This document shows, in pieces, positions 4,651 to 62,988 of a stretch of DNA of 64,000 nt (within the stretch, counting starts at the first letter, position 1; each line of letters begins with the position of its first letter). Under the pieces are notes generated by a model. The model searched no databases. It saw only the letters and a list, made by a program, of their open reading frames with translations, and was not told the DNA's origin. This DNA is from Octopus vulgaris (Eukaryota). A program made the position numbers and the translations under genes. Location of the stretch: assembly GCA_951406725.2 (NCBI GenBank), contig OX597822.1, forward strand, positions 77,376,001-77,440,000, in the 5' to 3' direction.

Positions 4651-6224
4651 TTCAGTGGAATTTGAAATTAGAATGTAAAAGCAGTTGAAATGCTACTGAG
4701 CATTTGCCTGACTTGCTAACGTTTCTACCAGCTCTCTGCCTTTGCCAGGAGGAATATTGGAGGCTTAATGTTCTGCTTCACTTTTGTTCATTTTAACTCC
4801 TTAGACCAGGAGGATGGGGCAGTGCCCACGAAATATTTGTAGGTCTGCCTAGATTGATCAAGATTATTGTCATTCGTGTTCCTCTCAAACATTTGTAAAT
4901 CAGTGTGGAGAGATAAGAATCTGACATTTGAGATCATGATGCAGGAAAATTTGCTTCTGTTACTGGTTACATATTCTGGTGATCTATATCATCCAACATT
5001 ATAAAGTAACTCTGAGCCTCCTGAAACAGCTGTTGTACTTGTAACACCATACTTCTCCTTTTGTTCTCAGTGTAAGTTAGCTCTGTTAATATATCAATAT
5101 CTCTATATTTATCCTTGAATAATCATCAACTGAAAATTTTCAGCTTTTGCTTTCACTCTTTATATACTTGTATATATATTTTGTATATCAAACCTATGCA
5201 GTTTTATTTGCTTATTTGCATCATTGTCTCCATATCTGCTCACCTAGTTTCCTTTTATAGCCATTCTTTACCCTGCGGACTTGGTCCTCGGTAAAGGTTT
5301 CAGGGCATAAGTTCAAACCATTTGAGCACTACAAAGTGTTTCCTTTATTGAGCGTCTCTGGATCTCATGTTGACTCTTTCTCTGTCTGTCTGTCTCTCTC
5401 TCTTTCTCTCTCTCTCTCTCTCTCTCTCATATACATATCTTAAAGATAAGATATTAAATTTTAATATGAAATTATCCTTCTCCAGCTTTGGGTTAAGTAG
5501 CTAAAAAAACACCACAGATACGGCTCTGAGAAACTAGAGATGTAGGCTCTGAGAAACTAGAGATGTAGAAAACAAAGATGGTTGCATTGTGAACCCAGTG
5601 TTTATTTCAAATCACTACACACACATACACAAAGTGTATACATAGACACAGTCCGCTCTGTAAAGTGGTCAGCATCAGGAAGTGCTTCCATCCATAAAAA
5701 CCAATCCAAAACAGACACTGGAGCTGGGCACAGGTCTCTGGAGCTTACAAGCTCCTTTCAAACCGTCTAACCCATGCCAGGATGGAAAAACGAACATTAA
5801 ATGATGATGTTGAAGAATATGACACAGATATCTATACCCCGTAACTTAGCAGTTCAGCAAAAAAGACTGGCAGAATAAGTACTAGGCTTACAAAGAATAA
5901 GTCCTGGGGTTGATTTGCTTGATTAAAAGCAGTCTTCCAGCATGGCCACAGTAAAATTACTTAAACAAGTAAAAGAATATGTACACACACACACACATAA
6001 ATATAGAGACATATGCATGTATGTAAATACACACATACACACAAATAATAAGACATGATGTGGGATTGATCCTGTGACCTCATGGTTGTAAAGCAAACAT
6101 CTTAACAGCACAACTATACCTACATCCATATTTTGATCCATCTTACACTTATGGTGAAGTGTCTAATTTAATTTAGTATTTATTCATAATCAGATCCCAC
6201 CATCACCACACTACTACTACAAAT

Positions 6225-7050
6225 ATATATGTAATAAGATATGTATGCATGTATGTATATATATATATATGTATGTATGTATGTATGTATGTATGTATAT
6301 ATGTGTGTATATATGTATGTATATGTATATATGTATGTATGTATGTATGTATGTGTATATGTATGTGTAATTATGTATGTATATATATATATATGTATGT
6401 GTATGAATTTATATGTATGTGTATGTATGTATATATATATGTATGTGTATGTATGTATGTGTGTATATATGTATGTATATATATATATGTGTGTGTATGT
6501 ATATATGTATGTATGTATGTATGTATATGTATGTATGTATGTATATGTATGTATGTGTATGTATATATATGTATGTATATATGTATGCATGTATATATAT
6601 ATACGTTTATATATATGTATGTGTATGTATATATATGTATGTATATATGTATATATATATATATATATACGTATATATATATATGTATATATATGTATAT
6701 ATATGTATATATATATATGTATATATATATATATATATATGTATATATATGTATATATATATATGTATATATATATATATATGTATATATATGTATATAT
6801 ATGTATATATATATATGTATATATATATGTATATGTATATATATATGTATATATATGTATATGTATATATATATATGTATATATATATATATGTATATAT
6901 ATATGTATATATATATATGTATGTATGCATATATATGTATGTATATATATGTATGTATGCATATATATGTATGTATATATATGTATGTATGTATGTATAT
7001 ATATATGTATGTATATATGTATGTATATATATCAACATGCATACATGCAA
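6225..7050. repeat. (TATG)n/(TA)n microsatellite tract
   Basis: About 800 bp of alternating purine/pyrimidine repeat, the source of several spurious YIYI ORFs. Confidence 0.97.
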
Positions 7051-61310: not shown

Positions 61311-62885
61311 ACCCCACCCCACTTTTTTCTCTTTCTTTTCCTTTCTCCTTCCTTTCCTGTTTCTTTATAATTGTTTAGCTGCATTTCATCTGTCTTTACA
61401 TTCTGAGTTCAAACTCCACCAAGGTCTACTTCACCTTTCATCCTTTCAGGGTCAATAAATTAAGTACCAGTTGCAAATTGGGGGTTGATGTAATTGGCTT
61501 ATCCCTTCCTCTGAAACTGCTGGCCTTGTGCCAAAATTTGAAATCAACATTTTGTTTACTTATTCATTTATGTTTATCTGTCTGTCTGTCTCTCATTATG
61601 TGTGTGTTTTTATATATCTCTCTCTCTCTCTCTCAATCTGTCTATCCACTTCATCATCTTCATTTAATGTCCATCTTTCATGCATGCATGAGTAGGACAG
61701 TTGACAGGATCCGGCTAGGTAGAAAATGTACCCAAGGCTACTGTCTCTGTTTTAGCAGGGATTTTACGGCTGGATGCCCTTCTTAACACCAAACACTCAG
61801 CAGAATGGACTCAGTGCTTTTTACGTTGCCCTAGCAGATGCGAGGTTAGCTTCACAGTTGGATGCCCTTCTAAACATCAACCACATTATATTGTGGATTG
61901 GATGCTTTTAATGTGGCACCAGCACTGGCAGGGTAACTAAGTAACTCACAAGACAAGGAATTATGAAAGGGGCATTTGAGGGGGGGGGGACTTGTATCAG
62001 AAGATGAAAGGTTAGAGTGTGACAAACAGACTGAGAGACAGAAACAGGTGTCTTGCCACAACAGAGGAGGCTTTAGAGGAGGTGATCCAGTAGCAGATGA
62101 TGAAAGCTTAGAGTGTAACAGAGAAATAGAGGCAGAAATAGGTGTCTTGCTATAGAGGATGTACATGGTTACTCTGTGAGATCTATCTGACTGTTAGTTT
62201 GTAAATCCATCTAGCTTTAGATTTATCAGAAAAGCTTGTCATAGTTTCTCTAATTGACCATCTATTTTTTCTTACCTATTTTCATCCTAGTTTCTTCACC
62301 TTACTCCTGCCTCTCGCCTTTCTATCTCACTCTCTCTCTCTCTCTTAGTATGTCTTTGTCCATATCTATCACCAATTGCTTCATATCTTTCTTTTCCCAA
62401 AGGACATCAGATGAAATAGGAAACTGAGAGTGTGTGGTATTCATGCCATTCTGAAGAGAAATATCCACCATCAGGAATCAATACCTTTTCTCTTTTATTT
62501 GTTTCAGTCATGGGACTGTGCCCATTCTGGGTCACCACCTGGAAGGGTTTTAATCAAGCAAACCAACCCCTGCATTTTGTGTTATTTTATTTATTTTTTA
62601 ATCTGGTATTTGTTCTATTGGTTCCTTTTGCCAAACTGCTAAATTATAGTGACGTAAACAAACCAACACCATCAAAAGCTACCCATCAAACCAACACCAG
62701 TTGTCAAACTCCGTGTTTGTAGGTATGGCAGCCAAAACGACACACACATACAGATAGTGGGCTTCCACACAGTTTCTGTCATCAAATTCATTCCCAGAAT
62801 TGCTGGGAATGCCACATTACTCTGGATATACATTATCACACTGAGTGAAATGGTGAGAGGATCTAATGAAGGACTTATTTATACA

Positions 62886-62988
62886 ATCACCTGATGAAAT
62901 GCAGTTCACAACGGGAATGTAAGATAATGATTGCATACCTTACCTATGTACTAAAGGTGTAAAAATATGTTGAAACAATTGTAGTGAT
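62886..62988 (+). ncRNA. Type I hammerhead ribozyme motif
   Basis: ATCAC-CTGATGA-...-GAAA-C-AATT-G-TA-GTGAT. Perfect 5 bp stem I, palindromic stem III, weak long stem II. Confidence 0.75.

Follow-up and report, generated by a model that had tools for sequence, protein, structure and literature searches.

The 64,000-nucleotide stretch of the Octopus vulgaris genome described here (contig OX597822.1, our contig C9, positions 77376001-77440000; hereafter the window) has a G+C content of 35%, is rich in microsatellites and belongs to an assembly of 2.80 Gb in 227 contigs. Scattered through it are 15 sites at which a first-pass annotation, made from the letters alone, had noted hammerhead ribozyme motifs, and parts of a hammerhead were found at all 15, at or within 15 nt of the noted positions. 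In the main the sites are likely further hammerhead-bearing Penelope-like elements (PLEs), a known phenomenon already published for other animals. Resemblance between sites was seen only in the pairs 42833/43167 and 51413/52240, so that the 15 sites form 13 groups, in keeping with the annotation's view of minimal type I hammerheads from many unrelated families. Hammerhead position numbers and the clade labels of three PLE parents follow the cited papers; the clade names were given by motif layout rather than a tree.

A complete canonical core is present in five of the 15 window copies and absent from the other ten. On the forward strand, a short element at 14690-14836 carries a full-core hammerhead at 14694-14797, with a 9-bp stem I and a long stem II, and ends in (TA)n. 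A stub lying between microsatellites at 23384-23515 has its ribozyme at 23402-23447, with a stem I of 3 bp where the family has 4, and another at 62798-63031 has one with a long stem II at 62885-62988. The sequence at 52232-52325 is the 3' tip of a young Hydra-like PLE, with its hammerhead at 52239-52285 and, at 52215-52231, a partial duplicate of that hammerhead's stem I and first core half. On the reverse strand, a short element at 47066-47208 (hammerhead 47120-47200) ends at a microsatellite. Eight copies had been called intact; these five (14694, 23402, 47120, 52240 and 62886) indeed keep the full core and the 15.2-16.2 pair, but the pair is lost in the other three. Two of these are stubs on the reverse strand, one at 19516-19871 (hammerhead 19676-19752) and one at 26358-26497 (hammerhead 26452-26497, stem I of 6-7 bp, stem III pair lost), the latter with a partial inverted copy upstream. 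The third, at 43083-43256 on the forward strand, has a hammerhead at 43167-43212 with a decayed CpG in stem III and is the 3' end of a Penelope/Poseidon-like PLE family. It is the inverted partner of a tRNA-headed copy on the reverse strand at 42790-43073, which consists of an A box (43034-43044), a B box (42991-42999), an (AAT)n linker, a decayed hammerhead (42836-42877) and the 3' end. In the 19676 family some 170 nt follow the ribozyme, a longer stretch than in the other families, and part of it is complementary to sequence before the ribozyme.

The remaining sites are partial, decayed or divergent. The repeat stub at 4949-5230 (+) has only the second half of its hammerhead, with a palindromic stem III and GAAA at 5023. 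The first core half, which in the family lies further upstream, is missing from this copy, and the hexamer that was probably read as a mutated core at 4961 falls within stem II. The 3' stub of a young Neptune-like PLE at 12477-12683 (-) has its hammerhead at 12575-12612, with a zero-loop stem III, and ends at a microsatellite. It had been taken for a damaged copy, a view that does not hold: the family is 93-99% identical to it and shares the U at core position 6. The stub at 13501-13644 (+) is a decayed hammerhead that has lost C3 and G12, supported by one relative (L215, one of the loci collected for comparison); at 16502-16689 (+), a stub ending in (TA)n, the hammerhead (16502-16613) is broken by a 15-nt deletion that removes stem I and C3, the family majority being intact; and the stub at 21747-21885 (+) stops just past the first core half (21870-21876), with relatives in L149, which has both halves, and L156. 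Relatives of 13501 and 21864 were sought among the collected loci. At 51339-51597 (+), a 143-nt palindrome made of two decayed inverted hammerhead stubs with C at core position 4 (C4; 51339-51404 on the reverse strand, 51415-51459 on the forward) is followed by a tail; its two stubs (51339-51480) recur with the same ends at many loci and are confusable with a miniature inverted-repeat transposable element. The minus-strand half of this palindrome is one of three inverted partners that had gone unlisted, together with a truncated partner of the 13501 stub at 13320-13462 (-), with GAAA and a palindromic stem III at 13417-13428, and a decayed partner of the 14694 stub at 14540-14683 (-). If transcribed, the inverted pairs (13320-13644, 14540-14836, 42790-43256 and 51339-51480) might speculatively form long RNA hairpins and be substrates for adenosine-to-inosine editing.

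The first-pass annotation had proposed scoring a hammerhead descriptor against dinucleotide-shuffled sequence. Our strict descriptor demands a perfect core and a near-palindromic stem III, with no fewer than 3 bp in stem I and in stem II and a bulge permitted ahead of the latter; it matched three times in the window (23405, 47196 and 62891) and not once in any of 40 local dinucleotide shuffles or in the reversed window. With one core mismatch allowed (the relaxed descriptor), there were four matches against a shuffle mean of 0.4 and a maximum of 3. An earlier descriptor without the bulge, for which reason it overlooked three sites and was later superseded, gave two matches against means of 0.04-0.36 across 25 shuffles and contributes 14703 and 26491. 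The collected loci amount to 966 kb, most of it gathered for the hammerhead families of the window. When no palindrome was demanded, these loci yielded 54 distinct perfect-core matches, against none in one shuffle of the same loci, and stem III proved to be a perfect palindrome in 30, to have one or two mismatched positions in 19 and to be worse in five, which bears out the palindromic stem III that had been described. Loose matches do occur in AT-rich, repetitive DNA, such as the core-like string at 9581(-), which lies inside a common repeat whose other copies lack GAAA and serves as a negative example; the shuffle and reversal controls, together with conservation within families, refute chance for the family-supported sites, and it can hardly account for the motifs at large. 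We compared seven more palindrome-type strings of the window, and four more core-like ones, with the collected loci: one is the inverted partner of 13501, and the rest, 9581(-) included, lie in other repeats without a second core half or have no relatives.

We also asked how the window compares with the genome, using 20 evenly spaced 10-kb stretches from contigs C1-C5. At 200 kb this even sample covers 0.007% of the genome, and all genome-wide figures from it are rough. It held six strict and 11 relaxed matches (none and one in the reversed sample), or 1.9 and 3.5 per 64 kb against three and four in the window. The window is therefore not a special cluster, and the "dense population" attributed to it is not peculiar to it. 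Extrapolated from the 200 kb, near-intact hammerhead motifs would number roughly of the order of 100,000 in the genome. For schistosome, coelacanth and frog, PMC4209133 gives about 2,000-9,000 minimal motifs, and for Schistosoma mansoni PMC2770079 gives more than 38,000 BLAST matches; the methods differ, and no ranking among these numbers and ours is possible.

Conservation within families, the second check that had been proposed, gave the same answer. Genome-wide searches with 11 of the sites as queries returned 24 to 2800 first-look candidates, which are not copy numbers, and majority rows were built from 12-31 aligned pieces per family. Ten of the 11 fit a minimal type I hammerhead. The majority core is perfect in eight; that of 12575 has U6, that of 43167 has a decayed CpG in stem III, and that of 51413 was not read by the scan because both of its core CpGs decay. 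Individual pieces with a full canonical core ranged from none of 13 (12575) through 4 of 18 (26448) up to 18 of 20 (23402). Stems I and II differ in sequence between families yet pair, as had been observed from the window for stem I, although stem I is only 2 bp in the 4961 family, and several families have stem II insertions of 60-100 nt.

Two departures from the canonical core, U6 and C4, are family-wide variants, not damage to single copies. In the 12575 superfamily, CUGUNGA is found in 15 of 19 copies, position 6 being U and position 7 free. C4 occurs throughout the 51413 family, in all three relatives of 21864, in two L154-type copies and in seven of the 19 copies of a very common family not seen in the window (L133, L197, L212, L033, L192 and others; 12-nt stem II, zero-loop stem III). 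Since both decay products of the CpG are seen in the 51413 family, C4 is ancestral in the families that bear it. The young 52240 family, related to 51413, has the canonical core in nine of nine. Natural low-activity variants A6C and U4C are listed in PMC3088659, where A6U is absent from the main text.

Every family carries a minimal type I hammerhead of its own. It lies 40-170 nt from the 3' end, which is fixed, and the copies are cut short on the 5' side. They often carry an inverted partial copy, which lies upstream in 45 of 127 copies (ten families), and often adjoin microsatellites; many end in one, and some have an extra tail. In five groups (62886, 23402, 26448, 19676 and 16502) the 5' ends scatter over 10-250 nt or more, which is what random truncation would give. 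Paired copies, both in the window and in the fetched loci, are inverted and not head-to-tail. This bears on the thought that these are non-LTR (non-long terminal repeat) retrozymes, which consist of tandem units of 170-400 nt and yield circular RNAs by self-cleavage. Molluscs do have elements of this kind, derived from the ends of PLEs (PMC7229834; 10.64898/2026.07.22.740005), and like our copies they are non-coding and carry a type I hammerhead; but retrozymes are defined by head-to-tail tandem units and circular RNA, and Tandem Repeats Finder reported no array over any of the 15 sites save a 12-nt partial duplication at 52215-52255. We therefore think retrozymes a very improbable account of the window.

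Cleavage of hammerheads as dimers has reportedly been described by Lunse and colleagues. Minimal hammerheads do not cleave as monomers and do so weakly as dimers (PMC4209133). Because the copies here are mostly decayed and are single or inverted, not tandem, dimer cleavage at the window loci is unlikely; with ten of the 15 copies also short of a complete canonical core, most copies, judged from their sequence, are probably inert. In co-folding runs dimers were favoured by 2-14 kcal/mol, and the minimum-energy dimers were not all in the catalytic arrangement; these runs were not used as evidence.

A direct tie to PLEs exists for three groups: 52240, 12575 and 42833/43167 are the 3' ends of PLEs, with frames for reverse transcriptase (RT) and GIY-YIG nuclease 0.2-1 kb upstream in other copies. 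The tip at 52232-52325 is identical in 94 of 94 nt to the copy in L149, whose upstream sequence was found at 97-100% identity in all 40 loci scored, and in eight of ten fetched loci of this family an RT/GIY-YIG-like frame stops roughly 1.0 kb short of the ribozyme. Besides RT motifs, it shows a weak similarity to a 781-aa octopus PLE protein (E 6e-7) and has Atlas neighbours carrying RVT_1, HTH_animal and GIY-YIG (0.96-0.98); as in the Hydra clade of PMC8557442, its nuclease motif lacks the two internal cysteines. Two of 11 other loci of the 12575 family run into a frame with RT thumb, CxxC linker and GIY-YIG that ends about 600 nt upstream, and 42833/43167 continue into an RT and GIY-YIG frame that is broken and lacks the linker motif. 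Across the genome there are 6136 first-look candidates for GIY-YIG frames, and 148 of the 150 scored pass; some lie in open RT and GIY-YIG frames, of 574 and 781 aa. The 781-aa protein belongs to a young PLE family (L147:1430-6672 on contig C16, also L150) with a separate upstream frame of 359 aa.

We consider it probable, with good confidence, that the hammerhead-shaped motifs mark the 3' ends of many repeat families, three of them PLEs, and that most copies are inert leftovers of aborted PLE insertions. In an anole PLE, the protein nicks AT-rich DNA and reverse transcription starts at two internal RNA sites that define the tail; cleavage by the ribozyme requires the protein, and the ribozyme is dispensable for insertion in vitro (PMC11167929). 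By analogy, a PLE protein in the octopus would nick AT-rich DNA, and reverse transcription would start inside the element RNA, just past the ribozyme. Copying would usually stop or switch template early, so that the ribozyme-bearing tip would be inserted more often than any other part. Where full elements stand in tandem, two ribozymes may pair through the palindromic stem III and cleave the long transcript, probably aided by the PLE protein, and inserted stubs would decay, mainly at CpG.

Several observations weigh against this interpretation. The Rfam scan of the window placed no hammerhead family among its best 150 of 525 matches, where microRNA models matching microsatellites dominate; a general repeat finder was likewise dominated by microsatellites. 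The 52240 parent frame has no Pfam match, and a search of solved structures was similarly empty. Nine of the 12 groups examined (14694, 62886, 23402, 26448, 19676, 47120, 51413, 16502 and 4961) showed no sense coding link in the 1.5-kb flanks of 11-15 loci each; in L056, L088 and L183 PLE coding does lie upstream but antisense, which proves nothing on linkage. In the 456-nt terminal repeats of the 781-aa family, which are 99% identical, no canonical hammerhead occurs and a GAAA-palindrome-UH half is all that is visible, so not every PLE of this genome depends on the ribozyme. Finally, some 5' ends cluster more tightly than random truncation would lead one to expect: for 14694, 12 of 15 copies begin 13-39 nt ahead of the core, the remaining three being near-identical neighbouring duplications, while the distance is 7-65 nt in 12 of 12 copies of 47120 and 8-15 nt in 12 of 12 of 51413, where the query favoured palindromes. 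A search of sequencing runs with the 3' region of the 52240 family found no RNA run among those listed.

The clustering is what would be expected if most groups were dedicated non-autonomous mini-elements, with promoters of their own and mobilised in trans by PLE proteins, which is close to what had been annotated. The tRNA-headed subfamily, which starts at its promoter, points the same way, as does the window itself, in which no PLE coding was found. Yet three groups are continuous with PLE frames and five others have spread 5' ends, and fixed 5' ends could equally arise if reverse transcription began in the 5' terminal repeat of a full element's RNA. For most groups we hold this account to be unlikely. 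The annotated link to PLEs is supported, in three groups by continuity with coding frames. The claim of mainly dedicated non-autonomous elements is not supported in that form; such elements would suit the tRNA-headed subfamily and perhaps 14694, 47120 and 51413.

That subfamily belongs to the 42790-43256 family, in which the stop codon is followed by about 40 nt, a segment with A and B boxes of the kind used by RNA polymerase III (Pol III), an A-rich linker, the ribozyme and the 3' end. Scored against the consensus for such boxes, the two boxes stand at tRNA spacing with at most two mismatches in total in 18 of 18 loci, compared with 3 of 900 shuffles. Among 17 other loci picked by the tRNA-like segment alone, 15 start between -8 and +9 of the predicted first base, another does so at -24, and the last extends into the end of the coding sequence; 12 of the 17 continue on the same strand into the ribozyme region. 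The four pieces of the even sample that cover the segment, in three of its 20 stretches, all start at -7 to +1. The tRNA-headed copies share their 3' end with the partner that bears the open reading frame (ORF) (L224-L228, L230). On this sequence evidence the family has likely given rise to its own short element, similar to a short interspersed element (SINE). A Pol III promoter between stop codon and ribozyme would likely have produced such a short form, copied by the PLE protein: transcripts starting at the head, of about 280-310 nt with promoter, linker, hammerhead and tail, would yield a short element of high copy number.

Other features of this family count against a SINE start. When pieces were picked by ribozyme, 11 of 23 start at the head and 12 extend further upstream, and the window copy at 42790-43073 itself begins about 22 nt upstream of the head. 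Default ARAGORN finds no tRNA in the segment, Rfam calls none on one copy, and relaxed ARAGORN scores 1 of 21 against 1 of 210 shuffles. Moreover, a 5-bp mini-palindrome lies just before the head in ORF-attached copies too, so fold-back could explain the 5' clustering: the start of the copies would then be set by cDNA folding back or stalling at the palindrome, with no Pol III start and no separate SINE, and in L237, L244 and L245 the junctions are symmetric about it. We regard this as possible, if the less favoured account for this family, as the A and B boxes are near-perfect and correctly spaced, and L233, L242, L243 and L246, which lack the left arm of the palindrome, begin 1-5 nt ahead of the predicted first base. 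Beside tRNA-headed copies ARAGORN calls a tRNA-Leu(CAA)-like gene (L011:1116-1187), which differs in sequence from the element's head. Tandem dimers of other SINE-like repeats, 118-287 nt, lie at 37694-37915, 55845-56374 and 58468-58718.

Taken together, two propositions go beyond the known pattern: that PLE families here spread with non-canonical ribozyme cores (U6, C4), other positions being conserved, and that a SINE was born inside a Poseidon-like PLE through capture of a tRNA-type Pol III promoter after the stop codon. Whether both hold is, in our judgement, evenly balanced.

The closest precedent is the description of minimal type I hammerheads (min-HHR) in metazoan PLEs by Cervera and de la Pena 2014 (PMC4209133). 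Theirs and ours share the core, the extra base before stem II, a short stem I and a zero-loop or palindromic stem III; in both, many divergent families occur per genome, mostly as single motifs from truncated PLEs with some close opposite-strand pairs. They differ in the 60-100-nt stem II insertions found here and in the U6 and C4 variants, which fall outside their descriptor. No cephalopod is mentioned in the parts of that paper's text and in its supplement file 2 that the comparison covered. The three parents resemble endonuclease-bearing (EN+) PLEs of the Penelope/Poseidon, Neptune and Hydra clades (PMC8557442) in combining RT with a C-terminal GIY-YIG domain and a ribozyme near the 3' end, and copies share with them the inverted 5'-truncated partner, the optional tail and microsatellite targets; in contrast, the 3' untranslated part of the Poseidon-like family includes a promoter segment resembling a tRNA. 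A similar module is known from Schistosoma, where Sm-alpha consists of a Pol III promoter followed by a hammerhead (PMC6765202, PMC2770079). Sm-alpha and Sj-alpha likewise have a tRNA-related promoter and very high copy number, but Sm-alpha is described as tandem, with no mobilising partner named in the passages covered, whereas copies here are single or inverted and the same promoter-hammerhead module also sits within an autonomous PLE. Our literature search, with Repbase, Dfam and most subscription papers outside it, found no description of a tRNA-headed PLE derivative or of octopus hammerheads; the main text of PMC13282606 contains neither "ribozyme" nor "hammerhead".

These observations extend a known pattern to a large animal genome, with dozens of families and three PLE types. 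Among its young families the core is canonical in one (52240), variant in another (12575) and not recognisable in a third (the 781-aa family), which makes this genome a natural panel for studying what the ribozyme does for Penelope elements. The part most worth following up is the tRNA-headed derivative with its parent in the same genome. If confirmed, it would show how a SINE can arise from a PLE, with parent and offspring both still present, would identify a PLE as the agent that mobilises a SINE with a tRNA head and a hammerhead, and could explain elements of the Sm-alpha kind.

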